Assembly: GCA_030431785.1 (NCBI GenBank)
Contig: JAUIIM010000005.1
Location: forward strand, 1-51,796
Direction of reading: 5' to 3'
DNA: 51,796 nucleotides
Source of the DNA: Acidimicrobiia bacterium
Lineage (GTDB): Bacteria; Actinomycetota; Acidimicrobiia; Spongiisociales; UBA5794
Under the pieces are notes generated by a model. It searched no databases. It worked only from the letters and a program-made list of their open reading frames with translations, and had not been told where the DNA came from. A program made the position numbers and the translations under genes. This document shows, one piece after another, positions 2,354-48,995 of the stretch (its first letter is position 1; each line of letters starts with the position of its first letter).

Positions 2354-2414
2354 GGACGATTGTCGGATTGTCGGAACGAGGAGTCAGAAAGCAAGGAGCC
2401 AGGCGCGAGGAGCC
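2354..2414. repeat. Composite short tandem repeat: 8-mer GATTGTCG x2 followed by degenerate 7-mers of AGCCAGG type
   Basis: ggacgattgtcggattgtcgga then ...caaggag ccaggcg cgaggag; same motif order as 4557-4620. Confidence 0.6.
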
Positions 2415-2481
2415 CCATTAACAAATGCTCAACAGGCGGTGGGGGCGTCCCGGTATTCGGATCGGCCCGTACGCTTCTTCT

Positions 2482-3957
2482 ATGTCCCGTCGGATCGTGA
2501 AGCTCGTGGCTGTGCTGACCATGACCGCCGCTGCGTGTACGACCGGATCGACGACTTCAACCACCACAGCGGCTCCGTCGTCCCCCGACACCTCCGTGGT
2601 CGCCGTCGACGGGATCGCGATCCGTCCCGCCGAGAGCGCGGCTCTCCGGAACCAGGTCGGATACCAGTTCCCGCCGGCGCCGGGTCATCCGACCGGACCG
2701 CCCTCGGACGCCCTCGTCGAGCATCTTGACACCCTGTTCGGCGGGCTGGCCGCCGGACTCGGTGTCGACTTCGAATCGATCGTTGGTATCGAGCAGGCCG
2801 GCGACGCCCGGGCAGCTTGGCCCCTGTCGGATCTTCTTCGGGTGCTTGGCCCGAGCCGCGAGCGGAACCGGGCGATCGAAGCGGTGGCGTCTCTGACCGG
2901 TGCCAATCTCTACGAGGATCCCGTGACGAGCCGCAGCCTCACACAGTCGATGGTCGACCACTTGATCGCGTGGAATATTCCCGCTCTCGACGGATACGAG
3001 AGGTGGAAGCAACAGCTCCTGCTCCTCATCGAACCCCGGTGGCGGGACCTCTTCGCCGACCCGGAGGCCGCGATCGACTGGCGTTACCTCAACTGGGGAG
3101 GTGTGTTGATCGACGACCGTCCGCTCGGCACTCCGGTCGGGTGCTCTCTGGGATGCATCCCTGCACTCGACGACCCTGAGGTCACCGACGCAGCAGGGGG
3201 AGACTGGTACGACGACGACGGCATCGTGTTTGGTGTGACGGTCGCAGGCGAATCGCGCGCGTATCCGAAGCACATCATGGAGATCCACGAGATGGTCAAC
3301 GACACGCTCGGGGGTCGGCGTCTTGGGATCCCATATTGCACCCTCTGCGGGAGTGCTCAGGCCTACCTGACCGACTCGGTGCCCGAAGACGTCGAGGTGC
3401 CTGTGTTGCGAACGTCGGGGCTCCTCTCTCGGTCGAACAAGGTCATGTACGACTTGAACAGCAAGTCCGTGTTCGACACGTTCACGGGAACGGCGGTCGC
3501 CGGACCTCTACGAGAGCAGGACGTGACACTTGAGCAGGTCTCCGTGGTCACCTCTACCTGGCGTGAGTGGAAGGCTGCCCATCCCGACACGACCATCGTC
3601 GCCGAGGATGGTGGCATCGGACGGGTCTACGACCTGGATCCGCTTGGGGGCCGGGATGACAACGGCCCGATCTTCCCCGTGGGAGACGTCGATCAGAGGC
3701 TCGCAACCCAAACCCGGGTGTTCGGTGTGTTCGCGGACGATGGAACCCCGATCGCCTTTCCGGTGGTCGAAGCGCGGGGGACGATCGATGCCGGTGGCAG
3801 TGTTGCTCTGATGGGGATCGAACTGATTCCCGACGGTTCGGGTGTTCGGGCCAGGAGCACGGACGGCGACCCCGTCGTCGGCCATGAGTCCTTCTGGTTC
3901 GCCTGGAGTCAGTTCCACCCGGACACGATCGTCTGGGCACCGAGGTCAGATTCCTGA
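2482..3957 (+). CDS. DUF3179-family lipoprotein
   Basis: Lipobox TAAAC and Thr-rich linker; IPALDDP, RAYP..I..HEMVND, YCTLCGS, FWFAWSQFHPDT motifs. Start 2482 chosen from TACGCT-6nt-ATG. Confidence 0.85.
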   Translation: MSRRIVKLVAVLTMTAAACTTGSTTSTTTAAPSSPDTSVVAVDGIAIRPAESAALRNQVGYQFPPAPGHPTGPPSDALVEHLDTLFGGLAAGLGVDFESIVGIEQAGDARAAWPLSDLLRVLGPSRERNRAIEAVASLTGANLYEDPVTSRSLTQSMVDHLIAWNIPALDGYERWKQQLLLLIEPRWRDLFADPEAAIDWRYLNWGGVLIDDRPLGTPVGCSLGCIPALDDPEVTDAAGGDWYDDDGIVFGVTVAGESRAYPKHIMEIHEMVNDTLGGRRLGIPYCTLCGSAQAYLTDSVPEDVEVPVLRTSGLLSRSNKVMYDLNSKSVFDTFTGTAVAGPLREQDVTLEQVSVVTSTWREWKAAHPDTTIVAEDGGIGRVYDLDPLGGRDDNGPIFPVGDVDQRLATQTRVFGVFADDGTPIAFPVVEARGTIDAGGSVALMGIELIPDGSGVRARSTDGDPVVGHESFWFAWSQFHPDTIVWAPRSDS

Positions 3958-4014
3958 TCGCAGAGGCGGACGGGCGATTACCAGTCGTGAGTCAGTTGCC
4001 GATCGATGAGCCAA

Positions 4015-4503
4015 CTAGAACACCCAGCGGGTGGCGCTTGAGCCGAAGCGTTCGGGTGATTCGATCAGCCCGAACGCCTTGACCGGGGTCACCTCGAAGA
4101 ACGCCCCTTGCAGCATGAAGGAGGCGAGTTCGGTGCGTTTGCCCGGGTCGTCCTCGTAGCGGGCAGCCCAAGCATCGGCGACGTCCTGCCGGCCTTCGAC
4201 CTGTGCCGCGGTCCCTTCGATCGAAACGACGTTGACGGTGTCCTCGCCCGTGACCACGACGTTCGGGTTCTGCTCGATGTTGCGGACCTTCAGCGCCGAC
4301 GGTGCGGTGGAGAACCAGAACCGGTCGTCGAACCAGACCCCCCACACAGGCGTTGCGTGTGGCCGACCGTCTGGATCGACTGTCACGACCCAGTAGTTCT
4401 TGGAGGCATGGAGCTGTTCCTCCGCCCACGACCACGGAAGTGCACCGTCGAGTTCGTCGGGTACACCGTACTCGGCCATCGCGGGTCGCTGGATCTCAGG
4501 CAT
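4015..4503 (-). CDS. Pyridoxamine 5'-phosphate oxidase-like (split-barrel flavin/F420-binding) protein
   Basis: NYWVVTVDPDGRPHATPVWGVW and KVRNIEQNPNV motifs; TAGTCT-6nt-ATG. Confidence 0.85.
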   Translation of the reverse strand: MPEIQRPAMAEYGVPDELDGALPWSWAEEQLHASKNYWVVTVDPDGRPHATPVWGVWFDDRFWFSTAPSALKVRNIEQNPNVVVTGEDTVNVVSIEGTAAQVEGRQDVADAWAARYEDDPGKRTELASFMLQGAFFEVTPVKAFGLIESPERFGSSATRWVF

Positions 4504-4556
4504 GGCACGAGACTACCGAACGGGACAGGGGACGTGGTAGAGGACCGAAGTGTGTC

Positions 4557-4651
4557 CGGATCATCGGATAGTCGGATTGTCGGATTGTCGGCCAGCAGCC
4601 GGGAGCCAGTAGCCAGTAGCTTGCGCCTACACGCCTACACGCCTACACGCC
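4557..4651. repeat. Three abutting tandem arrays: CGGATTGT-type 8-mer x4, CCAGTAG-type 7-mer x4, ACGCCTAC 8-mer x3.5
   Basis: Read directly: cggatcat cggatagt cggattgt cggattgt / ccagcag ccgggag ccagtag ccagtag / gcgcctac acgcctac acgcctac acgcc. Confidence 0.9.
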
Positions 4652-6030
4652 CCCCGGGCCTGCTGGAAGGCGAAGGCGGCTCGCAGGACGTCGACGTCGG
4701 CGTGGTGGCGGCCGACGATCTGGAGACCGACGGGAAGACCGTCGGGGGTGAAGCCTGCCGGGACCGAGATGGCGGGCAGCTCGCACTCGGAGATGTAGTA
4801 GCACGTGGCGAACCAGCTGGTGTAGTTCTCCATCGCGACGCCATTGATTTCGGTCGGGTACTCCTGGTCGATCGGGAACGGCAGCACCGCGGAGGTCGGG
4901 ATCGCAAGGAAACGATGCTCGTCGAGAAAGGCCATGACACGCTGGCGCAGCCGCGTCTTTGCATTCGCCGCCTTTCCGATGTCGGCTGCAGTCAGCGTGA
5001 GGCCATACTCGGTGTTCCAGCGGATGGTGTCCTTGTAGTGCTCCGGATGACGGTCGATGACGTCGCCGAACTCCTTGGCGTAGTAGTACCCACGGAACAC
5101 TTTGAAGGCTTCCTCGGCACCACGGAAGTCCGGAGACGCATCGCGAACATCGAAGCCGATGGACCGGAGAACGTCCCTTGCCGGTTGCAGTGCCTCCGTC
5201 ACGGTAGGTTCGATGGGCAGGCCACCGAGGTCATCCGACCACGCGATCGGTACGCCCGTCCAGTCCGCTGCGAGAGGTGTCGCAAACACGCTTTCGGATT
5301 CTTCGATCGAGATCGGGATGCGCTCATCGGGGCCAGCGCAGGCGGCCATGAAAAGGGCGACGTCCTCGACCGACCGTGCCATGGGGCCGTGTACCGAATG
5401 CGTCCACCAGGCGTCCCTGCTGGGCCACGTCGGGATGCGTCCCGGGGAGGGGCGGAACCCCACCGTGCTCGTGAACGACGCCGGATTGCGAAGGGAGGCT
5501 CCGTAGTCCGATCCATCGGCGAGGGCGACCATTCCCGTCGCCACCGCAACGGCAGCTCCGCCGCTCGATCCTCCGGGGGTCAGGTTCCGATCCCACGGGT
5601 TCCGAGTGACCCCGAACACTTCGTTGAACGTCTGGGACCCCGCTCCGTGCTGCGGAGTATTCGTCTTTCCAACGGTGACCGCACCTGCCTGCTGCATCCG
5701 CTCGACGATGAGGGTGTTCCTCGTCGGGACATGGTCTGCGTACACCGGCGACCCGAACGTGGTGCGGATTCCTTTGGTCTCGTGGAGATCTTTGTGTGCA
5801 ACGGGTAGCCCAGTGAGGAGTGGGATGTCGCCGCCGCGAGCGAGCCGTTCATCGGCAGCCTGCGCCATCTCATGCGCGACTTCAGGTACGAGCGTGACGA
5901 TCGCGTTGAGGTCGTCGTTCACCTCGTCGATTCGCGCAAGATGCAGATCGAGCAGTTCCACTGCAGAGATCTCACGCCGCCGGAGCATGGCCGCCTGGTC
6001 GACAGCTCTTAGGTCAACGATGTCCGTCAT
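4627..6030 (-). CDS. Amidase (amidase-signature family)
   Basis: GLPVAHKD, GKTNTP, TPGGSSGGAA and GSDYGASLRNPA (Ser-cisSer-Lys triad region). Confidence 0.93.
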   Translation of the reverse strand: MTDIVDLRAVDQAAMLRRREISAVELLDLHLARIDEVNDDLNAIVTLVPEVAHEMAQAADERLARGGDIPLLTGLPVAHKDLHETKGIRTTFGSPVYADHVPTRNTLIVERMQQAGAVTVGKTNTPQHGAGSQTFNEVFGVTRNPWDRNLTPGGSSGGAAVAVATGMVALADGSDYGASLRNPASFTSTVGFRPSPGRIPTWPSRDAWWTHSVHGPMARSVEDVALFMAACAGPDERIPISIEESESVFATPLAADWTGVPIAWSDDLGGLPIEPTVTEALQPARDVLRSIGFDVRDASPDFRGAEEAFKVFRGYYYAKEFGDVIDRHPEHYKDTIRWNTEYGLTLTAADIGKAANAKTRLRQRVMAFLDEHRFLAIPTSAVLPFPIDQEYPTEINGVAMENYTSWFATCYYISECELPAISVPAGFTPDGLPVGLQIVGRHHADVDVLRAAFAFQQARGACRRVGV

Positions 6031-6046
6031 GCGGCGAGTGTATGAA

Positions 6047-7861
6047 TCACTCGACGACGTCGTACTCGATCTCGTACCACTCGGGCCACGATGCGCTCTC
6101 CAGTGTCGTTACTCGGAACGCCGACATGGTCATCGGGGTGGACGGTCGCCATGTGAGGACGTCGCCGGTGGCGGTGAACGAACGGAACTCGTGCATCAAC
6201 ACCCACTCGCCGTCGACGAGCCCCTCGATCTGATGGGCGGTGTCACTCGGAGGGTTCTGGAAGACGACGAGGCGGATTTCCGACAGGGTGGTCGGCCCTT
6301 CGAAGTCGAGTTGGATCCAACCGGGCGCCTCCTCGCCGGACGACCAGAACGACTCGCCGGTCGCAACACGGTCGAAGGCGAGTTCCGGTCCGTGCGCGTC
6401 GCGACTGGCTGAGGCGCTCGCACCCGATTCTTCGGTCCCGGACCCCGCGCACAGAATCGGTGCATCCGGTGCACAGAACACAGGCTCGCCGTCGATGATC
6501 GTCGCCGCGACGCTGATGCCGAGCAGATGTTGGTGTGGGGTGGTCAGGGGGTTGGCCGACAGCACGATCAGGTCCGCTCGTTTCCCGACCGTCAACGAAC
6601 CGATCTCATCCTCCAAGCCGACCGCGTAGGCGGCGTTGATCGTCATCATCTGCATCGCCTGGTCGATCGTGACAGCCCCGGTCTCCATCCACGGTTCAGG
6701 TGTGCACGCAACCCCGTCGTCTCCCAATCTGTTGCGCGTCACCAAGCTGTAAAGGTCCGGTATGGCTCCATCGGGCGGCCATGCCGGGTCGTCGCTGTGC
6801 CAGGCAACGATGGTCCCGGGTGCCTCGTTCCAGACCGTGTTGGGGCGCTCGCCATACTGTTTGAAGAAGTCCGTCCATTCGAGGTCGTAGCAGGCTGGTG
6901 ACCCGCCGAACACGACGGGAACCACCCCGATGTCGGAGTATCGCCGTGCGCTTTCCGGGTTGAGGAACGTGTTGTGGTCGATCCGGTGGCGCAGGTCTGA
7001 CGTCGATTCCTCTAGAGCGATCTCATACGCGTCCAAGACCCGATCGATTGCAAGATCCCCCTGCGCATGGATGACCATCTGCAGAGACAGCGCATCGACC
7101 TCGGCGATCAACGCAGCAAGATCGGCCGTCTCCTGGAACGGAGGACCAATCGTCGCCTCGGGTGCCCAGGGTTGGCTTGCTGCGACGGCCCCGCATACGA
7201 AACTGCCGTCACCGAATACCTTGACCCCTTTCAGTTCGAGGCGATCGCTGATCGATCCCGGTTCCAGAGCCTTCCACCAATCGCCGTAGGGTGCCCCGCA
7301 CGGATCGGTGATGGTCACATACATCAGAAGGCGGACCTTGAGTTCGTCTGCTTCGGCGAGAGCTACGAACTCCCCGTACAGCTGTGGCTCGACTGAGGCG
7401 TCGCCGAGCGTCGTAATCCCTTGGGAGAGGACGCTCTGCTGGGCCCCGTCGAACGGTCCGGCATCAGACAGCGCATGGGAGTGCGGATCCACGAACCCCG
7501 GAGCGAGTGTCCGGCCGTCGAGGTCGATGACCTGCGTGGCGTCCCCGATGTACGCCTCCACCTCTGATCGGGGTCCGACGGCGATGATCCTTTCGCCTTT
7601 CACGGCGAGCGCTTCGGCTATGCCAACGGAAGGATCCATCGTCACGACCTCGCCACCGACGTAGACGGCGTCGGCGATGTCGCCAACAGGAGCTGCGGTG
7701 GTGGTCGTCGATGGGCCGGAGGTGCTCGATGTCGTGGTGTCGACGACCGACGTCGACGTCTCCGGCACCGAGGTCGTCCCCTCCGTGCTGGGGCTGCAGG
7801 CGGGAAGGAGAACTGCGGTGGCGAGCAGCGCTCCGATCCGGAGAGAGATCTTGCGTGTCAT
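6047..7861 (-). CDS. Lipoprotein metal-dependent amidohydrolase (YtcJ-like) with C-terminal discoidin/F5-8C-like domain
   Basis: Lipobox LLPAC; PGFVDPHSH, IHAQGD, RHRIDH, HSDDP and GKRADLIVL motifs; C-terminal LAFD..FWSS..PGWIQLDF..EIEY. Confidence 0.82.
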   Translation of the reverse strand: MTRKISLRIGALLATAVLLPACSPSTEGTTSVPETSTSVVDTTTSSTSGPSTTTTAAPVGDIADAVYVGGEVVTMDPSVGIAEALAVKGERIIAVGPRSEVEAYIGDATQVIDLDGRTLAPGFVDPHSHALSDAGPFDGAQQSVLSQGITTLGDASVEPQLYGEFVALAEADELKVRLLMYVTITDPCGAPYGDWWKALEPGSISDRLELKGVKVFGDGSFVCGAVAASQPWAPEATIGPPFQETADLAALIAEVDALSLQMVIHAQGDLAIDRVLDAYEIALEESTSDLRHRIDHNTFLNPESARRYSDIGVVPVVFGGSPACYDLEWTDFFKQYGERPNTVWNEAPGTIVAWHSDDPAWPPDGAIPDLYSLVTRNRLGDDGVACTPEPWMETGAVTIDQAMQMMTINAAYAVGLEDEIGSLTVGKRADLIVLSANPLTTPHQHLLGISVAATIIDGEPVFCAPDAPILCAGSGTEESGASASASRDAHGPELAFDRVATGESFWSSGEEAPGWIQLDFEGPTTLSEIRLVVFQNPPSDTAHQIEGLVDGEWVLMHEFRSFTATGDVLTWRPSTPMTMSAFRVTTLESASWPEWYEIEYDVVE

Positions 7862-7873
7862 CGATCGCCGACG

Positions 7874-10033
7874 CTAGTTCATCCGTCGAGGAAGAGCAGA
7901 ACTCCAGATGTGCGCTGCATCTGCAAGGGGGAGTGAGCCAAGGTCGCCGAAGTCGAGGTCAGCACCACCGACGGTTCCAATTCGGCGGCAGTTGACCGGG
8001 GTGATCGGTTCGTGGTGACTCACGACGATGGCGCGCAGTGGTGTCTCGTCGAACAACTCGTCGGCCGAGATGTCGTCGAGTATGACACCGATGCTGGACT
8101 TGATCGCGATCTCGGCCAGCGCCACCGCCAGGCCCCCTGTCGAAATGTCGTGCACCACCGGTGTCCCGCTGGAAGCCAGGTCCGCCACGGAGGTGATCAC
8201 TCGTCGCGCCGTGTCGCCGTCGACATCAGCGGGGCGACCCCGGAGGGAGCCATTGAGGATCCGGTCGAACGCCGAACCCGCCAGGTCACCCTCGGCTTCG
8301 GAACCGATCACCCAGATGCCCATGTCGTGCTCGGCTGCATCGAGTCTCGGCGGTTTCGTCGGGATGTCCTCCGTGAACCCGAGAACGCCTACCACCGGTG
8401 CCGGATAGATGTCGACGCCATCGGTCTGGTTGTAGAACGAAACGTTGCCACCGACCACCGGCAGGTCGAGTTCTTCACACGCCCACGCCATCCCATCGAC
8501 GGCCTCGATGAACTGCCACATGACCTCGGGGTTCTCCGGGTTGCCAAAGTTCAGGTTGTCGACGACCGCATACGGTCGCGTCCCCGTCACGGCGACGTTC
8601 ATCGCGCCTTCGAACACGATTCTCGCCCCACCACGCCGTGGGTCGAGGTAGGTACGGAATGCATCGCCATCGGTAGCGACGGCGAGTCCTTTCGTCGTCC
8701 CCTTGATCCGCATCAACGATCCGTCGTGCCCGGGTTCGACCACCGTGTTGAGGAACAGCATGTGGTCGTACTGCGACGAGATCCACGAGCGATCGCCGAT
8801 CGCGGGATCGTCCAGGAGTGTCCGTAGAGCGTCGACCACATCGACCTCATCGGGGATACTCGGCTCATCAGCCCAGACTTCGTCGAGATAGGAAGGACGT
8901 TCCGCCGGTCGGTCGTAGATCGGGGCATCGTCGGCCAGGGACGCTGCGGGCACCTCGGCGACGAGCTCCCCGTCGGAGAACACTCGCAACTCGGGACCTT
9001 GCGTCACCTCGCCGATGGTCCTGGCGTCGATCTCCCATTTCGATGCGAGGTCGAGGACCGCCTGTTCGTTCTCAGGTGCCACGATCGCGAGCATCCGCTC
9101 CTGCGACTCGGACATGAGGATCTCACCGGGAGTCATGCCTTGTTCGCGAACATGGACGTTGTCCAAGTCGACGTCCATCCCCATCCCGCCGTTCCCGGCC
9201 GTCTCGGAGGTCGCACAGGAGATACCGGCCGCACCGAGATCCTGGATCGCAACGACCAAACCCTCGTCGTACAGCTCGAGGCAGGCCTCGATGAGCTTCT
9301 TCTCCTCGAACGGGTCACCGACTTGGACGTTCGGTCGCTTGCCCTCGTCGCCCTCTTCGAACGACGCAGAGGCGAGGATGGAGGCTCCACCGATACCGTC
9401 GCGTCCGGTGGCGTTCCCGAGCAGGATCGCCTTGTTCCCTTCGCCCGAGGCGGCGGACAGAACGAGCTGTTCCTGCTTGAGGAGACCGAGTGCCATGACG
9501 TTGACGAGCGGGTTCTTCGAAAACCGATCGGCGAACTCGACTTCTCCGCCCAGTGTCGGGACACCGACGGCGTTGCCGTAGCCAGCGATACCGGAGACCA
9601 CCCCCTCCAGCAGGTAGCGATTGTGTGGGTCGTCGAGGGGGCCGAACCGCAAGGGGTCCCAGACTGCGACCGGTCGAGCCCCCATGGTGAACACGTCCCT
9701 GAGGATCCCCCCGACACCGGTCGCGGCGCCTTGATATGGCTCGACGAACGACGGATGGTTGTGACTCTCGATCCTGAGCGCTGCCAACCACCCGTCGCCG
9801 AGATCCACAACCCCGGCGTTCTCGCCCGGGCCGACGACGACCCATGGTTGGTCGGAGCCGAAACGGCCGAGGTGCTTGCGTGACGACTTGTAGGAACAAT
9901 GCTCCGACCACATGACGGAATACATCGCGAGTTCTGCCGGCCGGGGTTCGCGCCCGAGGATCTCACAGACGGAGTCATACTCCTCGTCCGTCATCCCGAG
10001 CTGGATGTGTGCCGGGGTTGCCTCGGTGGTCAT
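7874..10033 (-). CDS. purL: Phosphoribosylformylglycinamidine synthase subunit PurL
   Basis: [42 protein letters not shown] and GGNVSFYN motifs. Confidence 0.98.
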
Positions 10034-10725
10034 GCAGAAAGTGGGGCAGTGACCGACGCTGCGAATGACTCGATCATCACCATGCCGTCGGAAGATCCGA
10101 GGATCGACTCGGCAGCTCGTTCAGGGTGCGGCATGATCGCTGCCACGTTGCGCCGCTCGTTCGTGATGGCGGCGATTGCGTTCGTCGAGCCGTTCGGGTT
10201 GCCCTGCTTGTCGATCGAGCCGTCCGGATTGCTGTACCGAGCGACCACGAGGTCGGCGTTCTCGACATCGTCGATGGCTTCTGCGATGTAGTTGCCTTCG
10301 TAGGAGTTGAGCGGGATACGGAGGACCTGGCCTACCTCGGCACGATTCGTGAGGATGCTGTCCGTCGACTCGACCCGGACATGGATGTGTCTGCAGATGA
10401 ACTTGAGGTCCCGGTTGGCCACCAGCGCACCGGGAAGCAGACCCGCTTCGCACAGGATCTGGAATCCGTTGCAGATGCCGAGGATCGGTGCGCCGAGCGC
10501 TGCGAGACGATCGATCTCGCTCATCACCGGGCTGAACCGTGCGATCGCTCCGGTACGCAGGTAGTCGCCGTGGGCGAACCCTCCAGGCAGGACGACGCCA
10601 TCGGCTCCGGACAGATCCGTCTCTGTGTGCCATACGAGCTCGGTCTCGACGCCGATGAGGTCCAGCGCATGGACGATGTCGTGCTCGCAGTTCGTGCCGG
10701 GGAACACGACGACGGCGACGCTCAT
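10030..10725 (-). CDS. purQ: FGAM synthase glutaminase subunit PurQ
   Basis: [27 protein letters not shown] and MPHPER motifs. Confidence 0.97.
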
Positions 10726-10970
10726 GATTCTGACTCCACGGTGTAGGTCTCCATCACGGGGTTTGCGAGGAGCTTCTCACACATCTCGTCGACCGAAGAC
10801 CTGGCGGTGGCCTCGTCGGATGCGTGGATGGTGACCGACACGATCCGACCGAACGACACGTGTTCGACGTCCTCGAAGCCGAGGTCGATCAACGCTTTGC
10901 GTGTCGTCGCCCCCTCGGGATCGGAGAGTCCTGGCTTTCGTTCGATCGTGATACGAAACCGGTGGGTCAC
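10722..10970 (-). CDS. purS: FGAM synthase subunit PurS
   Basis: KPGLSDPEG and MCEKLLANPVME motifs; GTG start overlaps the purC stop (GTGA). Confidence 0.93.
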   Translation of the reverse strand: MTHRFRITIERKPGLSDPEGATTRKALIDLGFEDVEHVSFGRIVSVTIHASDEATARSSVDEMCEKLLANPVMETYTVESES

Positions 10971-11857
10971 GAGGCACCGACCTCGTCGAGGTAATCGGTA
11001 AAGGCACGTTCGGTGAGCCGTTCGTAGGCTTCGATGTATCGGTCGGACGTCGCTTGGACGACGTCGTCGGGCATCGCCGGTGCCGGTGGGGTCTTGTCCC
11101 ATCCGTCCTGTGTCTCGAGCCAGTCGCGCACTGGTTGCTTGTCGAACGATGGCATCGTCGCACCCGGTCCCCAGGCATCGGCTGGCCAGTAGCGGGACGA
11201 GTCGGGGGTCAAGACTTCGTCGATCAGGATGATCTCACCGTCGACCATCCCGAATTCGAATTTGGTGTCGGCGAGGATGATGCCCTTCTGCGCCGCGTAG
11301 TCGGCCCCACGGTTGTAGATGTCGAGGGACCGCTGTTTCAGTTCCTCGTAGAGATCGTTCCCGACGAACTCGCGCGCCTCTGCTTCGGTGAGGTTCTCGT
11401 CATGGCCGCTCTCGGCTTTCGTCGCAGGGGTGAAGATCGGTTCCGCCAGCTTGCTCGCCATGTCGAGCCCGTCCGGGAGGTGCTCCGTCGTCGGACCGCC
11501 ACCGGAGGAGTACTCCTTCCACGACGATCCGTACAGGTAGCCGCGGATGACACACTCCATCGGGATGACTTCGGCAGCACGGACGTACATGGAGCGGCCC
11601 GCGTACTTCTCCTGCTGGTCCGGCGTGAGGAAGTCCATCTCGCGGGTGTCGGCCGAGACGAGGTGGTGTGGTGTATCGAGGAGATCGAACCAGTGGAGGG
11701 AGACTCCGGTGAGGACCTGCCCCTTGTGCGGGATATCCTCGCCGAGCACGACGTCGAATGCCGAGATCCGATCCGATGCGACGATCAAGAGATGATCGTC
11801 GTCCACGCGGAAGATCTCTCTGACCTTCCCCGAACCGATGTGCTCCAACGCCGCCAC
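10967..11857 (-). CDS. purC: SAICAR synthetase
   Basis: SGKVREIF, SDRISAFD, ILADTKFEFG and DEVLTPDSSRYW motifs. GTG start at 11857 inferred from a leaderless -10. Confidence 0.96.
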   Translation of the reverse strand: MAALEHIGSGKVREIFRVDDDHLLIVASDRISAFDVVLGEDIPHKGQVLTGVSLHWFDLLDTPHHLVSADTREMDFLTPDQQEKYAGRSMYVRAAEVIPMECVIRGYLYGSSWKEYSSGGGPTTEHLPDGLDMASKLAEPIFTPATKAESGHDENLTEAEAREFVGNDLYEELKQRSLDIYNRGADYAAQKGIILADTKFEFGMVDGEIILIDEVLTPDSSRYWPADAWGPGATMPSFDKQPVRDWLETQDGWDKTPPAPAMPDDVVQATSDRYIEAYERLTERAFTDYLDEVGAS

Positions 11858-11871
11858 GAGTGCGATGGTAC
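11855..11871 (-). promoter_or_regulatory. Putative leaderless promoter of purC (-10 TACCAT, 7 nt, GTG)
   Basis: Minus strand GTACCATCGCACTCGTG; 15/17 identical to the purF motif. Confidence 0.55.
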
Positions 11872-11904
11872 TCCCTCCGGGAGATCTCCCAACCCTCGGT
11901 TGGG

Positions 11905-11939
11905 GATTCAAGATCCCAGATCTCAGACCTCAAATCCCT
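11905..11939. repeat. Degenerate 7-mer array (GATCYCA type) x5
   Basis: gattcaa gatccca gatctca gacctca aatccct, preceded by the hairpin cccaacc-ctc-ggttggg. Confidence 0.7.
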
Positions 11940-11967
11940 CTCCCGGCTCTGCGATACCCTCATCGGT

Positions 11968-12423
11968 ATGGATCAGACGACGCACCCGTGGGGAGATGCG
12001 GCGACGCCGTTCGAGGCTCTCGGTGGGGAGCCGGTGATTCGGTCGATCGTCGAGGACTTCTACGACCTCATCGATGCGGAGGCGCCGGTACTTCGGGCGA
12101 TGCTGCCCAAGGACGATTCCACCTCACGTCGCAAGCTCGGGGACTATCTGGTGGAGTGGACCGGTGGACCAGCGCTGTACACACCGGTTCGTGGTCATCC
12201 ACGTATGCGCATGCGCCACATGCCCTTCGTCATCGCACAGTCGGATGCACAGGAGTGGCTCGACTGTATGAGGCGGGCTCTCGACATGAACGATGTGGAG
12301 GGTGATGTGCGGGCATTCCTCGACCAACGCATCGAGCAACTTGCGTGGCACATGGTGAACGCCGACGACGACGATCCGAAGACGGCGGAGCGACGTCGCC
12401 TGACGCTGAATCCCGGCTCCTGA
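11968..12423 (+). CDS. Group II truncated hemoglobin (globin)
   Basis: FEALGGE..IVEDFYD, WTGGPALY and GHPRMRMRHMPF motifs; TACCCT-7nt-ATG. Confidence 0.92.
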   Translation: MDQTTHPWGDAATPFEALGGEPVIRSIVEDFYDLIDAEAPVLRAMLPKDDSTSRRKLGDYLVEWTGGPALYTPVRGHPRMRMRHMPFVIAQSDAQEWLDCMRRALDMNDVEGDVRAFLDQRIEQLAWHMVNADDDDPKTAERRRLTLNPGS

Positions 12424-12453
12424 TCACGACACGTGTGGTGTCCAGTAGCGGGA

Positions 12454-12480
12454 TGTCGAATCCCGCACTCGGCGATCGTC
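12454..12480 (+). promoter_or_regulatory. ECF42-type sigma promoter (TGTCGA-N17-CGTC)
   Basis: Matches the ECF42 consensus and lies directly upstream of a DGPF/YciI gene, the usual ECF42 target. Confidence 0.65.
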
Positions 12481-12527
12481 AGTAGGGTGAGTGCGGGGAT
12501 TCCGCACCGGATCACAAGGAGCGAGCG

Positions 12528-12899
12528 ATGAACCAGTACATGCTTTCCGTGCACGCCGGCGGAGAAGACGCACAACCCACGTCCCAGCCGACACCTGACG
12601 AGATGCAGGCGTACATGCAGCAGATCGCCGACCTCGAACAAGAGATGGACGATGCCGGGGTCTTCGTCTTCGGTGGGGCTCTAAAGGGACCCGAGTCGTC
12701 AGCCGTCGCCCGTGGAGACTCGGCGAGGGTGGTCGACGGACCATTCATCGAGACGAAGGAACACCTCGCCGGGTTCTACCTCATCAACGCTCCGGATGTC
12801 GGTGCAGCCCATGAGTGGGCCACCCGGGTTTCGAGTGTGGTCGGGAAACCGATCGAGGTCCGCCCGTTTGCAGCGACGGGTCGAGTCCAGGTCGGGTAG
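12528..12899 (+). CDS. YciI-family (DGPF) protein
   Basis: VVDGPFIETKEHLAGFYLI and IEVRPF motifs; RBS aaggag. Confidence 0.92.
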   Translation: MNQYMLSVHAGGEDAQPTSQPTPDEMQAYMQQIADLEQEMDDAGVFVFGGALKGPESSAVARGDSARVVDGPFIETKEHLAGFYLINAPDVGAAHEWATRVSSVVGKPIEVRPFAATGRVQVG

Positions 12900-12907
12900 C
12901 GCGTCCC

Positions 12908-13315
12908 ATGAAATCGACTGAGATCACGATCGAGACTGGGCACCGGTCCGTGGTTGCGGACATCACCGACGAGGTGCGGTCGTTCTGTTCCGGTGAAGGC
13001 GATGGGTTGGTCTCCGTGTTCGTTCCGCATGCGACGGCGGGAATCGCGATCTTCGAGACCGGAGCGGGATCCGACGTCGACGTCCTCAACGCGATCGACG
13101 ACCTGTTGCCTCGTGACGGCGACCGTTGGCGTCACGAGCACGGGACCCCCGGTCATGGCCGCGATCATGTGTTGCCGGCTTTCGTCGCCCCGTCGATCAC
13201 CATTCCCGTCATCGATGGTCAGCCGCAACTCGGCACCTGGCAATCGGTGGTGCTCATCGACACCAATGTCGACAATCAGTCCCGCCGCATCCGCCTGTCG
13301 TTCATCGCGGGCTGA
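12908..13315 (+). CDS. yjbQ: YjbQ/UPF0047 family protein (secondary thiamine-phosphate synthase)
   Basis: FVPHATAG, HGRDHV and LGTWQSVVLID motifs. Confidence 0.88.
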   Translation: MKSTEITIETGHRSVVADITDEVRSFCSGEGDGLVSVFVPHATAGIAIFETGAGSDVDVLNAIDDLLPRDGDRWRHEHGTPGHGRDHVLPAFVAPSITIPVIDGQPQLGTWQSVVLIDTNVDNQSRRIRLSFIAG

Positions 13316-13320
13316 GCAAC

Positions 13321-13370
13321 GCAACCCAGAGCTAGGTTGGTGAATATTCACGGTTCTAGCTCTGGGTTGC
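13321..13370. repeat. 50-bp near-palindrome between convergent genes (REP-like / bidirectional terminator candidate)
   Basis: gcaacccagagctag ... ctagctctgggttgc (15-bp perfect arms) around the inner palindrome gtgaatattcac. Confidence 0.8.
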
Positions 13371-13380
13371 AACCGAGGAG

Positions 13381-14676: not shown

Positions 14677-15119
14677 CCGGCGAGGCCAGCCCGGTAGTCA
14701 GCGAGCTTCGCTGCAACTCCCTCATCGGACACGGACACGATCGATGCGGCGAGGTAGGCAGCGTTTGCAGCCGAGTCGATGGCCACTGTGGCGACCGGAA
14801 TGCCTGTCGGCATTTGCACCGTGGCGTACAACGCATCGAGCCCGCCGAGACCACCGGCCGCAATGGGGACGCCGATGATCGGAAGGGTCGAATGAGCCGC
14901 AGCTGCGCCGGCGAGGTGGGCCGCCTTCCCTGCGCCACAGATGATCACACCGAAACCGTTGTCCCGAGCGTTCGAGCAGAACGCGGCGACCTTGGCGGGT
15001 GTTCGATGCGCCGACATCACATGTACTTCGTGCTCGATTCCGAACTCCTCGAGGACGCTGGTGGCGGCCTCCATCTTCGGCATGTCCTTGTCAGATCCCA
15101 TGAGAATGGCGACCTTCAT
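14673..15119 (-). CDS. purE: N5-CAIR mutase (class I PurE)
   Basis: VAILMGS, SAHRTP, AAHLAG and [12 protein letters not shown] motifs; ATGA overlap with the purD stop. Confidence 0.96.
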
Positions 15120-16381: not shown

Positions 16382-16383
16382 CC

Positions 16384-17829
<1,446 letters not shown>

Positions 17830-17853
17830 TCAGCGATTTCGAACGGAGCGTCC

Positions 17854-18378
17854 GTGGACGACCAGATCGCCACCAGAAAAGCAACTCTCGATCCGGCTAC
17901 CGCACCGGTGGTGCTTGCCGTCTCCGAGACGCCACCCACCCGGACCGAAGCGCTCCACATCCACACGACGGCGTCAAACGAGTTCTGGGATGTCACCGAT
18001 GTCGTTCGGGCCGTTGCCAAGCGGTCGAAGGTCACACACGGTCAGGTGACCGTGTACACCCCGCACACGACGACCACGATCGTGATCAACGAATCGGAGA
18101 CGGGGTTCCTCAACGACTTTCGACGCACGATCGGCTCGCTCGTTCCCGAGGACACCTACTACGAGCACGACGATCACTCGGTGCGCACCGAGAATCTCCA
18201 GGAAGACGAGTTCATCAACGGTCACGCCCATGTGCGTCAGCTGTTGACGGGACAGCCGTCGGTCACGGTACCGATCGTCGATGGTGAGGTCCTTCTCGGT
18301 CAGTGGCAGCGAGTGCTGTTCGCCGAACTCGACCAGGCCCGCGAACGCCGCCTCTTCGTACACGCGCAAGGATCCTGA
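17854..18378 (+). CDS. yjbQ: Second YjbQ/UPF0047 family protein
   Basis: VYTPHTTTTIVINE, YEHDD, NGHAH and LLGQWQRVLFAELD motifs; GTG start after ggag. Confidence 0.85.
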   Translation: MDDQIATRKATLDPATAPVVLAVSETPPTRTEALHIHTTASNEFWDVTDVVRAVAKRSKVTHGQVTVYTPHTTTTIVINESETGFLNDFRRTIGSLVPEDTYYEHDDHSVRTENLQEDEFINGHAHVRQLLTGQPSVTVPIVDGEVLLGQWQRVLFAELDQARERRLFVHAQGS

Positions 18379-18398
18379 TCGCGGAGCGATCAGGATCC
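18370..18398 (+). terminator. Perfect 13-bp hairpin over the yjbQ stop
   Basis: ggatcctgatcgc-gga-gcgatcaggatcc; no U tract. Confidence 0.5.
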
Positions 18399-18443
18399 GA
18401 CGATCCGATATCCGATGGTCCGACTGTCCGACGGCGGTCGGTC
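18394..18443. repeat. TCCGAnnn 7/8-mer array (left arm of the stem enclosing the four-helix-bundle gene)
   Basis: tccgacga tccgata tccgatgg tccgactg tccgacgg; complementary to 18843-18889. Confidence 0.85.
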
Positions 18444-18481
18444 TACTTCCAAACGGCGTCCGGTCTTGGTATTGGTGCGCT

Positions 18482-18844
18482 ATGCACAGGTATCGCAGTC
18501 TTCGCGTTTGGTCCCACTCAGTTGATCTTGCCCGTCATGTCTATCGGATTGCCGATGCAGCACCGAAGCGGGAGCAGTTCGCGGCAGCCGGTCAGATGAG
18601 GAGGGCGGCGCTGTCGATCCCGTCGAACATCGCCGAGGGTTCGTCACGACGTACTGCTACCGAATTTCGACGATTCATCGATATCGCGATGGGATCTGCG
18701 TACGAGCTCGATACCCAGTTGGAGGTGCTGTCCGGTTCTGACTGGCTGCCTTCGTCAACAGCGATCGAGCTTCAATCATCCTTGTCCGATATCCGTTCAA
18801 TGCTCTATGGCTTGAAACGGTCCGCAGTTGATCAGACACAGTGA
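18482..18844 (+). CDS. Four helix bundle protein (23S rRNA IVP family / Avd-like fold)
   Basis: YRSLRVW, QMRRAALSIPSNIAEGSSR and EFRRFIDIAMGSAYELDTQL; 120 aa. Confidence 0.93.
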   Translation: MHRYRSLRVWSHSVDLARHVYRIADAAPKREQFAAAGQMRRAALSIPSNIAEGSSRRTATEFRRFIDIAMGSAYELDTQLEVLSGSDWLPSSTAIELQSSLSDIRSMLYGLKRSAVDQTQ

Positions 18845-18889
18845 TTGTTGCCGTTCCCGGACAGTCGGAGATCGGCTGATCGGAGATCG
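18843..18889. repeat. TCGGA-type array (right arm of the stem enclosing the four-helix-bundle gene)
   Basis: cggacagtcgga (18858-18869) is the exact reverse complement of tccgactgtccg (18419-18430), followed by gatcggctgatcggagatcg. Confidence 0.85.
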
Positions 18890-19035
18890 TTCTGATGTGA
18901 ACAATCGGTTCGCGGGCCGCAATTGGTGGCATGGGATACGAAATGGGGCTAGCGTGAAGGGTGCCCCTTCCTATCCCGGAGGGGGACCGTGGCTCAACGC
19001 CACGGATAAGCAAGGAAATAAAGAGAGGAAACAGC

Positions 19036-20186: not shown

Positions 20187-20221
20187 GGATCGTCGGTACG
20201 TCGGATTCTCGGATCTTCCGG
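20187..20221. repeat. Degenerate 8-mer array (GGATnnTC) x4
   Basis: ggatcgtc ggtacgtc ggattctc ggatcttc; loosely complementary to 20692-20737. Confidence 0.7.
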
Positions 20222-20297
20222 CCCGAGAAGGGGCACGGTTTGACGGTCCCGTTTCCGTTCGTGGGCTATCGTGCGTGCAGCGACGAGAGGGAGCACC

Positions 20298-20684
20298 ATG
20301 TCCGACGAACTCAAAGAGCTGCTGTTCACCTGGGAAGGTCGCGTCAACCGTGCAAAGTGGTGGGGGTTTGGCTTCGGCGCCTGGCTGACGATCTTCGTCT
20401 TGTACGGGGTGTCGTACCTTCTCGTGATATCGGACTTCGAGATCCTCGGATACATCGCATTCGGCATCACGTTCCTCGCATCCATCGGGCTCGCTGTTTC
20501 CGGTGTCATGGTGACCATCAAACGCTGGCACGACCGTGGCAAGCCGGGGTGGTGGATCTTCATCTACTTCGTGCCGGTGATCGGACCGATCTGGGCGCTC
20601 ATCGAGCTCGGGTTCCTCCCCGGTGATGAGGTCGACAACGAGTGGGGCCCGAACCCCCTCGACCCAGCAGCAGCCAGGCGATAG
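20298..20684 (+). CDS. DUF805 (YhaH-like) membrane protein
   Basis: FTWEGRVNRAKWW, TIKRWHDRGKPGWW and NEWGPNP motifs. Confidence 0.9.
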   Translation: MSDELKELLFTWEGRVNRAKWWGFGFGAWLTIFVLYGVSYLLVISDFEILGYIAFGITFLASIGLAVSGVMVTIKRWHDRGKPGWWIFIYFVPVIGPIWALIELGFLPGDEVDNEWGPNPLDPAAARR

Positions 20685-20691
20685 ATCGATC

Positions 20692-20825
20692 GAAGATCTC
20701 CGATCTCCGATCCTCGATCTCGGATCTCTGAATCTCGACATCCCTCCAGTCGAAGCGCAGCCCGAGGTCGGACCGTCGGGTTTCGGACCGTCGGAGAATC
20801 GGACTATCGGAGATCGGACAGTCGG
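20692..20825. repeat. Inverted pair of arrays: GATCTCC 7-mer x6, then TCGGACnn 7/8-mer x7
   Basis: gatctcc gatctcc gatcctc gatctcg gatctct ... tcggaccg tcgggtt tcggaccg tcggagaa tcggacta tcggaga tcggacag; same layout as 17697-17764. Confidence 0.88.
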
Positions 20826-39166: not shown

Positions 39167-39262
39167 GATGAGGGGACAGAAGGGATGAAGGGATGAAGGG
39201 ACAAAGGGACAAAGGACAGACGACCGATGGCGAGTGTTCTGTGTTCTGTGATCCGTCTTCTG
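39167..39262. repeat. 8-mer GATGAAGG/GACAAAGG array (left inverted arm) plus 7-mer GTGTTCT array
   Basis: gatgaagg gatgaagg gacaaagg gacaaag ...; gtgttct gtgttct gtgatcc gtcttct. Confidence 0.88.
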
Positions 39263-40396: not shown

Positions 40397-40425
40397 ATGG
40401 TAACCAACCGGTTACGGGTTGTCAA
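40397..40425 (-). promoter_or_regulatory. Sigma-A leaderless promoter with overlapping ArsR-type operator
   Basis: TTGACA-17-TACCAT-6-ATG; palindrome GTAACC-N4-GGTTAC at 40400-40415. Confidence 0.8.
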
Positions 40426-40446
40426 CCAAGAGACAACCACCAACAC

Positions 40447-40475
40447 TTGTCCTTTTGTCCCTTCATCCCTTCGTC
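40447..40475. repeat. Right inverted arm (CCTTCATC/CCTTTGTC 8-mers)
   Basis: Reverse complement matches 39184-39212 at 27/29 positions. Confidence 0.88.
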
Positions 40476-40493
40476 TTGCCTTCTTCCTCCCAG

Positions 40494-40532
40494 CAAGAGA
40501 AGCGGAGGCCGTTCCCGGCCCCCGCTTCTTTT
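40494..40532 (-). terminator. Hairpin terminator candidate after the SPFH gene
   Basis: caagagaagcgg(a)ggcc-gttccc-ggcc(c)ccgcttcttttg. Confidence 0.6.
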
Positions 40533-40533
40533 G

Positions 40534-40584
40534 TCTGATACCTGGTATCTGATACCTGGTATCTGGTATCTGGTATCTGGTATC
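40534..40584. repeat. 7-mer array TCTGGTA/TCTGATA x7
   Basis: tctgata cctggta tctgata cctggta tctggta tctggta tctggta; ends 3 nt from the SPFH stop. Confidence 0.92.
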
Positions 40585-40587
40585 GGT

Positions 40588-47342: not shown

Positions 47343-47350
47343 GCTCGCAC

Positions 47351-47426
47351 AGATCACGGATCACGGATCACGGATCACGGATCACGGATCACGGGTCACG
47401 GATCACGGGTCACGGATCACGGATCA
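47351..47426. repeat. 7-mer array GGATCAC x11
   Basis: Read directly; two GGGTCAC variants and one AGATCAC. Confidence 0.97.
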
Positions 47427-47433
47427 GCATCGG

Positions 47434-47502
47434 TGGCTCATGGCTCATGGCTCATGGCTCATGGCTTATGGCTCATGGCTCATGGCCCATGGCTCATGGC
47501 TT
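47434..47502. repeat. 7-mer array TGGCTCA x9.8
   Basis: Read directly; variants TGGCTTA and TGGCCCA. Confidence 0.97.
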
Positions 47503-47503
47503 C

Positions 47504-47561
47504 GCTCCTAGGCAACCATGGCGAGGAGCTAGGAGCGAGGAGCCAGAAGCTCCTAGGCAAC
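47504..47561. repeat. nAGGAGC 7-mer array bracketed by 13-bp direct repeat GCTCCTAGGCAAC
   Basis: Copies at 47504-47516 and 47549-47561; between them gaggagc taggagc gaggagc cagaagc. Confidence 0.8.
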
Positions 47562-48182
47562 AATCATCTCGGCGTCGGGTTGTTGGAACACGAATGCCAC
47601 CGCGAGGGCTTCGTCCCTCGGCCAACCCGACAGTGTTTGCGAGGCAGTCGCATTCGCATAGGAGCGGAACTCGCTCCACGTCATCATCGTCTGTGGGGTG
47701 ACCGCAAGGCTTTGGTCCGGCTTCTCGCTGAGCGTGCCGGCGACGAACGAGAAGGCATCCATCTCGACCACCGCGAGATCGAGTTCCTCGCAGCGTCGGA
47801 TGAACTGTTCTGCGGTCGAACGATCGAAGAAGCCCTCACCGTCCTCCGTGCGGTGGACGATTTGTTCGTCGAACTCGGCGAGGAGCTCCTTCGTCGCAGG
47901 GTGTTCGTCATCCCACTGTTGGTCTTGTGCGGCTTGGCGGAGTTCGGCGAGGTCGTCGTCGAGCCCATCGGGATCGACCATGCGGATGGCCGTATCGAGT
48001 CGAAGTTGGAGCTCGCGCACGTCGAGGTCGTGGACGTCACCATCGGCATCCGGATAGATCTGTACCACGGTGGTCTCTCCATCGTGGAACACCATGCCGA
48101 CGAACTCTTGTCCACGCCACATCTCGACGATCGGTCCGTCGAAGTCGTCGCGTTCGGTTTCTACGAGTTGGATGGGCAGCAT
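47553..48182 (-). CDS. Acidic hypothetical protein
   Basis: Long ORF with GC-skewed codon usage; start MLPIQ chosen (TATCCT upstream); family not recognised. Confidence 0.7.
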   Translation of the reverse strand: MLPIQLVETERDDFDGPIVEMWRGQEFVGMVFHDGETTVVQIYPDADGDVHDLDVRELQLRLDTAIRMVDPDGLDDDLAELRQAAQDQQWDDEHPATKELLAEFDEQIVHRTEDGEGFFDRSTAEQFIRRCEELDLAVVEMDAFSFVAGTLSEKPDQSLAVTPQTMMTWSEFRSYANATASQTLSGWPRDEALAVAFVFQQPDAEMIVA

Positions 48183-48221
48183 ATGTCGTGAGGATAGGCG
48201 GCGGACCCACACTCGGACGAC

Positions 48222-48587
48222 TCACCTCTGACCGATGATCACCACGACCAGTCCGACGGCCATGTAGATCGCTCCCAGGAGAAGTGGCATGTTGGTCGTC
48301 ACCGTCTCCGTGCCGCGAGGCGTCTCCCAGTTCGCTCCGTTGATGGCCAGGTCGATCAGGGAGCCGGTGACGGGTCCGAGGATCATCGTGAGGATCCCCA
48401 GGACGATCGTTGCGTAGCCGAACCCGACCAAGTAGTCGATCCCCTCACACGAGGCGCCGACGATCGTCCCGTCGCAGAAGTCGGGCCAACGCGGAACGGA
48501 GATCCAGGCGACGATCCATGCCGCGAGGAGACCGGCAGCGAACAGCACGGTCGTCCGAATCCATCGGTTCTGCAGTAGCGAGCGCAT
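48222..48587 (-). CDS. Small membrane protein, hypothetical
   Basis: Three hydrophobic segments; TAGGGT-6nt-ATG. Confidence 0.7.
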   Translation of the reverse strand: MRSLLQNRWIRTTVLFAAGLLAAWIVAWISVPRWPDFCDGTIVGASCEGIDYLVGFGYATIVLGILTMILGPVTGSLIDLAINGANWETPRGTETVTTNMPLLLGAIYMAVGLVVVIIGQR

Positions 48588-48604
48588 GTGGCAACCCTAG
48601 ATCA

Positions 48605-48995
48605 TCGATTCCGATCCCAGATTTCAGATGCCAGATTCCAGATCCCCGCGCCTATGCGCCTACGCGCCGTCACGCTCGGATCATGGATCATGGATCATGG
48701 ATCATCGATCCGGCGCAGCCAGGAGCCAGGAGCTAGGAGCCAGGAGCCAGGAGCGGCGCGCCTGTACGCCTACGCGCCTCCGCGCTCGTACGTCGGATGG
48801 TCAGATTGTCGGATTGTCGGACCGCGCCCTTCCACCCCTGGGAGGTAATCATGGGTCCGTGGTAGCCAGGAGCCAGGAGCCAGGAGCCAGGAGCTGGCAC
48901 TACGATCCAGGAACGAGGAGCGGCGTGCCTATGCGCCTCCACGCGAACGCGCCACCACGCCACCACGCCCCCTCGCCCCAGCGCCCATACGCCTC
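48605..48995. repeat. Mosaic of about 9 consecutive 7/8-mer tandem blocks
   Basis: CAGATnn x5, CGCGCCTA x3, GGATCAT x4, AGCCAGG x5, CGCGCCTn x3, GTCGGATT x4, AGCCAGG x4, a degenerate AGGA pair and nnCGCCnn x9. Confidence 0.92.

Follow-up and report, generated by a model that had tools for sequence, protein, structure and literature searches.

Inverted heptamer and octamer arrays enclose IVP genes and share their units with arrays dispersed through an Acidimicrobiia genome

What are the short tandem arrays with units of 7 or 8 nt that lie scattered between the genes of an Acidimicrobiia contig, and how are they related to the small gene that two of them enclose? The stretch in question, here called the window, is 51,796 nt long and is contig C112 of a metagenome-assembled genome (MAG), designated G000, which holds 2,375,492 bp in 173 contigs, is 95% complete and has ~62% G+C; the enclosed gene codes for a four-helix-bundle member of the 23S rRNA-intervening sequence protein (IVP) family, PF05635. 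The original prediction for this window had linked the arrays to the IVP gene and had proposed that they mark the ends of shuffled accessory-gene cassettes. Our analysis bears out the link and speaks against the cassettes. We consider it rather probable that IVP genes reside in stem-loop elements of the intervening-sequence (IVS) type and are accompanied by a dispersed satellite of arrays built from the same units, in a manner comparable to the transposase genes (RAYTs) that accompany repetitive extragenic palindromic (REP) sequences, through a mechanism that we infer.

The protein encoded at 18482-18844 matches PF05635 with an E value of 7.6e-31 (106.9 bits, cut-off 33.8), and in the PDB it matches 2gsc (E 7.9e-20) and 2rld, the former being XCC0516, which is described as a homopentamer (PMC4990558). 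Its left arm (18394-18433) begins 16 nt past the stop codon of a UPF0047 gene, and in local alignment the two arms score 15 with each other, while none of 26 foreign partners scored above 11.5. When the RNA of 18385-18895 is folded, the arms close the element in both the minimum free energy and the centroid structures (z -2.05). The element as a whole (18394-18889) sits between the UPF0047 and solute-binding-protein genes and not in a 23S rRNA helix.

This architecture, a PF05635 gene within inverted, complementary 7- or 8-nt arrays, is general across phyla. PF05635 matches occur at six places in G000, and at all six there are arrays on both sides, with a different unit at every locus. These six loci, together with 21 from relatives among G001-G032 (relatives being labelled G001 onward), make up a set of 27 Acidimicrobiia loci, for which each 220-nt left flank was locally aligned to the reverse complement of each right flank, own and cross-locus; duplex folding of the same flanks gave huge energies for all pairs and did not separate own from foreign, so that local alignment was used instead. 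The own partner exceeded the cross-locus 95th percentile (12.0) at 22 of the 27 loci and was the best partner at 20. Scanning metagenomes with an alignment of four IVP sequences left 80 loci, 55 of them with at least 250 nt on both sides, and inverted flanks scored above the cross-locus 95th percentile at 47 and above the 99th at 35 of these 55, as against only 12 for direct flanks. Arrays of 7- or 8-nt units were present on both sides at 33 of the metagenomic loci, on one side at 18 and on neither at 4; the periods that Tandem Repeats Finder (TRF) reported in their flanks were 7 (70 rows), 8 (32), 14 (27), 21 (12), 16 (8) and a few others. As a background, inverted flanks scoring at least 15 occur at 10 of 1852 single genes in G000, and two of these ten are IVP genes.

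Beyond Acidimicrobiia, a tblastn search of plasmids for IVP returned 20 records, mostly from Nostocales. Of the eight plasmid or rRNA loci examined, six scored higher with their own arm than with any foreign one: Nostoc edaphicum (AGTAGGG/TCCCTAC), Pseudanabaena, Anabaena sp. 90, N. punctiforme, Azospirillum lipoferum and Gemmatirosa (with an 8-nt unit). A second N. edaphicum copy has inverted 8-nt arms, AGAGGAGC/CTCCTCTG. Rfam places the Azospirillum copy inside a large subunit (LSU) rRNA gene (1707.8 bits), which makes it an intervening sequence of the classical kind; its arms are inverted heptamer arrays. As a single control, the bona fide avd gene of a diversity-generating retroelement (DGR) on pANA02 of Anabaena sp. 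90 showed no inverted array arms.

The site downstream of UPF0047 can be followed between species, the window being colinear with G010:C5, G006:C1 and G005:C8. An IVP gene stands there on the plus strand in G000 and G002 and on the minus strand in G005 and G006; in G010 the site is a 265-bp spacer with neither IVP gene nor array. The arm units are GATCCGAC/TCGGAGA in G000, ACAGAGG/CCTCTGT in G002, TGATTCC/GATCTGG in G005 and CAGATGT/CATCTGG in G006, so that at this site the unit changes between species while the two arms remain complementary. Arrays start at most ~75 nt past the UPF0047 stop codon, within ~20 nt in G000, G002 and G006 and farther away in G005. The IVP orthologues of G005 and G006 show 53-54% identity to the window's protein; for purA the identity is 84-85% and for the solute-binding protein 66-68%. 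The window holds two UPF0047 (YjbQ-like) paralogues within its purine cluster, at 12815-13315 and ~17870-18378, and the second, where four species carry the IVP element, is its conserved landing site. In G006, the element's right arm (locus L085, G006:C1, ~10376-10615) is ~240 nt long, with CATCTGG x25.7 interleaved with CAGACAA; arms can therefore far outgrow the usual 3-6 copies.

Arrays of the same kind are abundant throughout G000. TRF returned 577 period-7 and 258 period-8 rows among a total of 2222, compared with 97 and 110 in an order-3 Markov simulation of the contigs, and under strict criteria (at least 2.5 copies, score at least 36, non-overlapping) there are 536 period-7/8 arrays in the genome versus 10 in the simulated copy. 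With overlaps removed and at least 2.5 copies required, we counted 657 arrays, which make up 0.95% of the sequence and fall into 384 clusters; 218 of the clusters hold one array, 104 hold two, 44 three and 18 between four and seven. That the arrays lie between genes, as had been noted for the window, holds genome-wide: 414 of the 577 period-7 rows are mostly intergenic, and periods 3, 6, 9 and 12 are almost all coding. Genes were called with a crude greedy caller based on third-position G+C (GC3), which over-extends starts and by which 85% of the genome is coding, and some of the arrays scored as coding are for this reason probably intergenic. The six families into which the arrays had been sorted proved too few, as the genome has 133 canonical units of 7 nt and 102 of 8 nt, the commonest being AGCCAGG (58), AATCCGAC (52), ATCATCG (40), AGATCGG (39) and AGCCATG (35).

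These dispersed arrays use the units of their own genome's IVP arms. When the 12 arm units of the G000 IVP genes were compared with the 646 arrays that do not flank an IVP gene, 139 arrays matched exactly and 428 within one mismatch, whereas the arm units of 14 other genomes gave 0-16 exact matches to the same arrays; per arm unit, this amounts to 11.6 exact matches for own units versus 0-4.0 for foreign ones. The matches are spread over the six IVP loci (135 arrays for C112, 129 for C72, 74 for C15, 47 for C48, 39 for C138 and 16 for C139), and only 10 arrays match more than one locus. AGCCAGG in three copies, with one mismatch allowed, is found at 56 sites in G000 and at none in 40 relatives; the same unit read backwards, which served as the control pattern, happens to be used in arrays of G004, G005, G008 and G009 and also occurs in the arms of G004's IVP gene. 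In cyanobacterial plasmids we found 3-7 arrays per 50 kb, too few for own arm units to be compared with dispersed arrays.

The predicted co-occurrence of arrays with four-helix-bundle genes was likewise borne out among relatives, which were sampled at 2-60 kb per genome (60 kb each for G007 and G010, two congeners without an IVP gene). Eleven IVP-negative relatives, G007 and G010 included, had 0 arrays in 354,702 bp of random samples, and none appeared in a further 52,655 bp of G010; in the 14 IVP-positive relatives there were 40 arrays in ~524 kb, with at least one array in 10 of the 14. In a prediction test, the genomes of the array-bearing loci L006 and L010 carry 3 and 7 IVP matches, those of the array-free loci L007 and L009 have no IVP match, and that of L008 has one partial copy. 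Because arms persist in genomes without dispersed arrays, yet arrays were never seen without IVP genes, the comparison suggests a direction from IVP to arrays, as judged from few independent lineages and small samples.

Could the arrays instead be ordinary long simple sequence repeats (SSRs), born by slippage independently of any protein, into which IVP elements insert or from which they take their stems? In many bacteria, heptamers outnumber the other classes of long SSR, and slippage has been proposed as their source (Mrazek 2007, as cited in PMC4679880); several of our observations fit this: arrays occur in every spacer class without strand bias, adjacent arrays have no fixed order (the commonest ordered pair was seen 6 times in G000), and 218 of the 646 arrays fit no known arm unit within one mismatch, among them the abundant ATCATGG and ACACGCCT families, which also tells against an origin of the arrays in IVP elements. 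On the other hand, inverted arms are kept in genomes without dispersed arrays in the sample (G012, G020 and G029) and inside a 23S rRNA gene, and the arms therefore belong to the IVP element. Slippage alone also leaves unexplained why one genome repeats the same few units at over 100 loci and its congeners use other units, and it is at odds with the 0 of 11 IVP-free sampled genomes that had arrays. We regard this account as unlikely, though it is the most serious competitor.

Another account would make the dispersed arrays cis-regulatory sites for a transcription or translation regulator of the host, with IVP genes regulated alike. Arrays are indeed intergenic and often near gene ends, and a regulatory role has been proposed for the TAACTGA repeats of Beggiatoaceae (PMC4679880). 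Across the spacer classes of G000, however, arrays are found in 67/425 and 69/423 tandem, 51/319 convergent and 37/320 divergent spacers, with no preferred class, no preference for 5' over 3' spacers and no consistent orientation with respect to the neighbouring genes. A single genome has over 200 canonical units, congeners differ in their units although the genes on either side are retained, and an array-free congener possesses the same genes; all this argues against a regulator's binding site, and we judge the idea improbable.

The arrays might also have been a product of assembly or binning, and short-read contigs do join them falsely: in public runs, contigs jump between far-apart arrays of one unit (4591 to 17739, 11937 to 4573), so that arrays make false joints in k-mer assemblies. 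The arrays themselves are nevertheless well reproduced. Ten runs from several studies contain half or more of the words sampled from window positions 17600-19000, with no RNA run on record for this stretch; contigs of X1 and X2 cover 16968-18172 and a contig of X5 covers 18446-19107, right IVP arm included, all with zero differences, and X12 contigs carry the hairpin at 17697-17764 and the right IVP arm at ~94-96% identity (~94% for the right arm). Hairpin and right arm thus recur, identical or nearly so, in assembled runs that come from three or more studies. Arrays are not enriched at contig ends (11 of 346 ends, 2.9% expected), and the same architecture is present in complete plasmids and long contigs of other genomes. 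The chance that the arrays are an artefact is negligible.

Do the arrays mark gene cassettes, as the original prediction had it? Our results do not support this. Complementary arms enclose the IVP gene as described, but as a general rule such bracketing does not rise above its direct-repeat control: flanks scoring at least 15 enclose 10 of 1852 single genes of G000 in inverted and 18 of 1852 in direct orientation, and for two-gene units the counts are 15 inverted and 13 direct. The eight non-IVP genes with inverted brackets encode a sigma-70 fusion, an Rce1-like protease, a SHOCT protein, a class-I tRNA synthetase, RuvX, a FecCD permease, an EamA transporter and a mycothiol transferase, so that core genes are bracketed too. 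In the window, most spacers with arrays separate genes that are also neighbours in G010, which is both IVP-free and array-free: this holds for the spacers 40397-40587, 47343-47552 and 48588-49043, and the genes around 47343-49043 occur in G010 too, an outcome that the original prediction had itself named as refuting it. In a small and partly hand-made tally against G010, ~5 of 15 spacers at presence/absence breakpoints carry arrays (2 of them being the IVP arms), versus ~7 of 30 at conserved junctions. A transposase-free shuffling of accessory genes between inverted array arms could still claim three observations, namely the DUF805 gene at 20271-20684, which has arrays on either side and is missing from the syntenic stretches of three congeners (G010, G006 and G005); the flipping of the IVP segment between species at one locus; and the gene at 47553-48212, which abuts arrays and is a single-gene inversion relative to its neighbours, as seen against each of the five congeners searched (G004, G005, G006, G008 and G010). 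Set against the counts above, these leave such shuffling very improbable, marginally more so than a regulatory function.

The reading that we favour, IVS-type elements with a satellite of same-unit arrays, has two parts. The first is an element of ~0.5 kb, a PF05635 gene within two inverted complementary arrays of 7- or 8-nt units, of which the genome has six, with the one at 18394-18889 in the window; the second is the several hundred dispersed, mostly one-armed intergenic arrays with the units of the same genome's IVP arms. The arms of IVP elements would evolve in concert. Once transcribed, they may form a long paired stem, and its cleavage by RNase III would release or insulate the IVP message; such an RNA-processing role is plausible by likeness to the RNase III-cut stem of the IVP-bearing 23S intervening sequence. 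An oligomeric IVP protein, in turn, may bind runs of its own unit, and this binding could cause same-unit arrays to be seeded, expanded or copied at other sites, which would make the arrays satellites of IVP genes.

A wider proposal goes further: PF05635 proteins would act in trans as the partner of the heptamer and octamer arrays of the short tandemly repeated repetitive (STRR) type in bacteria, across Actinomycetota, Cyanobacteriota, Pseudomonadota and Gemmatimonadota, each paralogue acting as a non-catalytic oligomeric binder that recognises its own unit, maintains its own arms and seeds or expands same-unit arrays. We offer this version tentatively and think it somewhat likelier to fail than to hold.

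Several points weigh against the favoured reading, in addition to the arrays that match no arm unit. Own flanks did not exceed the control at 5 of the 27 Acidimicrobiia and 8 of the 55 metagenomic IVP loci. Five IVP-positive genomes (G012, G020, G028, G029 and G044) had no dispersed arrays in the sample, so the presence of IVP is not sufficient for arrays; their dependence on IVP is correlative, and since the relatives are kin, few independent events underlie the co-occurrence. Of 80 inverted array pairs, only 17 have their partners within 150 nt, and because most arrays are one-armed, the stem model fails to explain the bulk of them. The lack of strand bias gives no indication of an RNA-level role for the dispersed arrays. 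In contigs of four runs over window positions 2000-21999, no 7- or 8-nt indels were listed, although contigs drop rare variants and X5 and X12 cover this range in part. To our knowledge, no nuclease or polymerase activity is associated with the four-helix-bundle fold.

How does this arrangement compare with known repeat systems? A RAYT is a low-copy Y1 (HUH) transposase whose gene is flanked by inverted copies of a genome-specific family of dispersed REP or REPIN repeats, REP sequences being palindromes of 20-40 nt, often in inverted doublets. The IVP gene is similarly flanked by inverted copies of its own genome's dispersed families, with about one family per gene copy. It encodes, however, a four-helix bundle and not a Y1 (HUH) transposase, and no Y1_Tnp (PF01797) was found in G000 at its 95% completeness; unlike REPs, the IVP-linked repeats are not palindromes but tandem 7/8-nt arrays, mostly one-armed, as the scarcity of close inverted pairs indicates.

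Cyanobacterial STRR sequences are dispersed heptanucleotide repeats with several families per genome, for which we know of no function or mechanism. The arrays of G000 resemble them, and long SSRs of 5-11 nt in general, in being dispersed, mostly intergenic tandem heptamers of several families, and differ in their host (Acidimicrobiia in place of cyanobacteria), in the frequency of 8-nt units, in tracking PF05635 genes and in having units other than the canonical STRR ones. No link of STRRs or long SSRs to a protein gene was found in the searchable literature. The TAACTGA repeats of marine Beggiatoaceae, Cyanobacteria and Bacteroidetes are also intergenic tandem heptamers, with 2-6 copies per set and a patchy phylogenetic spread (PMC4679880), but they come as one dominant unit in forward orientation near start codons (PMC4679880), whereas the units of G000 are many and without a preferred orientation; that paper does not use the words 'intervening sequence', 'S23' or 'four helix'.

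A close likeness is to 23S intervening sequences with an S23p/IVP open reading frame (ORF), as in Coxiella and Leptospira, in which a PF05635 ORF lies in a unit of ~0.4-0.5 kb closed by terminal inverted repeats (PMC4990558). In Coxiella, the terminal stem is 28 bp long, RNase III cuts within it, and it contains tandem GACAGAT heptamers whose number varies among strains (PMC4990558). The window element differs in lying between protein-coding genes and not in rRNA, and G000 differs in having six copies, each with its own unit, plus hundreds of dispersed same-unit arrays. The Avd protein of DGRs has a four-helix-bundle fold homologous to IVP (PMC10053308), but G000 has no reverse transcriptase, next to its IVP genes or elsewhere (no RVT_1 was found in it), and, as noted above, the avd gene of Anabaena sp. 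90 is without array arms. No prior link of PF05635, S23p or four-helix-bundle proteins to genome-wide heptamer arrays turned up in the openly available papers searched; the heptamers in the Coxiella IVS stem are the sole partial precedent found.

If the favoured reading is right, it would join two old puzzles, the origin and upkeep of dispersed bacterial heptamer repeats and the role of the widespread 'intervening sequence' four-helix-bundle proteins, and it comes with rules that can be checked in other genomes: IVP genes lie within inverted 7/8-nt arrays, dispersed arrays use the arm units of their own IVP genes, and sampled arrays occur only together with IVP genes. The flanking-array rule also lets annotators delimit IVP elements. 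As small self-contained stem-loop elements, IVP genes would be expected inside cas, nrd and rRNA operons without being components of those systems. In plasmid records L165-L168, arrayed IVP genes stand between cas6 and cas4 (in two cyanobacteria), between the two ribonucleotide reductase subunit genes and between toxin-secretion transporter genes. IVP genes in cas loci had been noted earlier (PMC3936711); within operons they resemble small intruding elements, which may explain the reported 'association' with cas loci.

Table 1. Tandem arrays, the IVP element and array-flanked genes in the window (TRF, Tandem Repeats Finder; a dot marks features given without a strand).
Position	Strand	Feature	Context	Basis
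2354..2420	+	GATTGTCG x2.2, then weak GGAGCCA-type run	between divergent rhomboid and DUF3179 genes	TRF, by eye
4564..4651	+	three abutting arrays: TCGGATTG x3.5, GCCAGTA x4.3, CGCCTACA x3.5		TRF
11911..11936	+	AGATCTC-type array x3.7	upstream of purC and globin gene	TRF
17697..17764	.	ORF-less hairpin of two inverted arrays: CGATCTC x3.6, then GAGATCG x4.1		TRF
18394..18433	+	left arm of IVP element: degenerate 8-nt array GATCCGAC, 5.1 copies		TRF
18482..18844	+	IVP gene, 120 aa, PF05635 (23S rRNA-intervening sequence protein, four-helix bundle)		Pfam
18858..18889	+	right arm of IVP element: 7-nt array TCGGAGA (TRF row 18865-18889, 3.4 copies), reverse-complementary to left arm		
20187..20215	+	weak degenerate TCGGnnnn run	upstream of DUF805 gene	by eye; no TRF row at score 30
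20271..20684	+	DUF805 gene	arrays on either side	Pfam, tblastn and synteny
20695..20825	+	composite arrays: GATCTCC x4.9, then GTCGGACC and TCGGACAA		TRF
39167..39262	+	GATGAAGG/GGGACAAA arrays (~5 copies), then GTGTTCT x4.1		TRF
40447..40584	.	weak reverse GAAGGGA run (40447-40470), then TCTGGTA x7.3 (40534-40584)		TRF, by eye
47348..47551	.	three arrays: CACGGAT x11.3, TGGCTCA x9.7, AGGAGCT x4.0		TRF
47553..48212	-	219-aa gene, no Pfam family	abuts arrays 47348-47551	
48607..48986	+	cluster of 7-8 arrays, part 1: GATTCCA, CGCGCCTA, GGATCAT, AGCCAGG		TRF
48607..48986	+	cluster, part 2: CGCCTACG, GTCGGATT, AGCCAGG, CGCCACCA		TRF

Within the window itself, TRF at a score of at least 30 reported 68 rows, and 32 of these have a period of 7 or 8. 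For 25 of the 29 array positions listed in the original prediction there is a period-7/8 row at most 10 nt away; the other four (2393, 20187, 40447 and 42773) are degenerate runs of 2-3 copies that are visible by eye only. By Pfam, the genes run from purF, rhomboid, DUF3179, PNPOx, amidase, amidohydrolase, purL-Q-S-C, globin and UPF0047 through purB-E-D-A, the second UPF0047, IVP and an ABC uptake system into which the DUF805 gene is inserted, to Lgt, SDR, AHSA1, ArsR, SPFH, NfeD, ClpB, a PEMT-like gene, two unknowns and an aminotransferase. These assignments confirm the names purF, purL-Q-S-C and purB-E-D-A, and no TRF array lies inside the purA-D-E-B or purC-S-Q-L runs, in keeping with what had been observed by inspection.

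The rhomboid and DUF3179 genes beside the first arrays are likewise neighbours in G010 and G005, and the ArsR and SPFH genes around the spacer with arrays at 40447-40584 are adjacent in G010, G006 and G005. The hairpin at 17697-17764, which occurs in contigs of X1, X2 and X12, is placed between the divergent purA and UPF0047 genes and folds as RNA with -46.9 kcal/mol (z -4.85). The spacer at 48588-49043, which holds the array cluster, measures 456 bp in G000 and 92 bp in G010. A G+C-rich inverted repeat resembling a terminator hairpin follows the solute-binding-protein gene at 20140-20180, just before the weak array at 20187. The gene block 25133-32876 is mostly missing from the syntenic stretches of the congeners, and within it a 354-aa ORF (31812-32876) contains, at 31893-32119, a coding tandem repeat of period 27 with an 81-nt higher order and ~6 copies.

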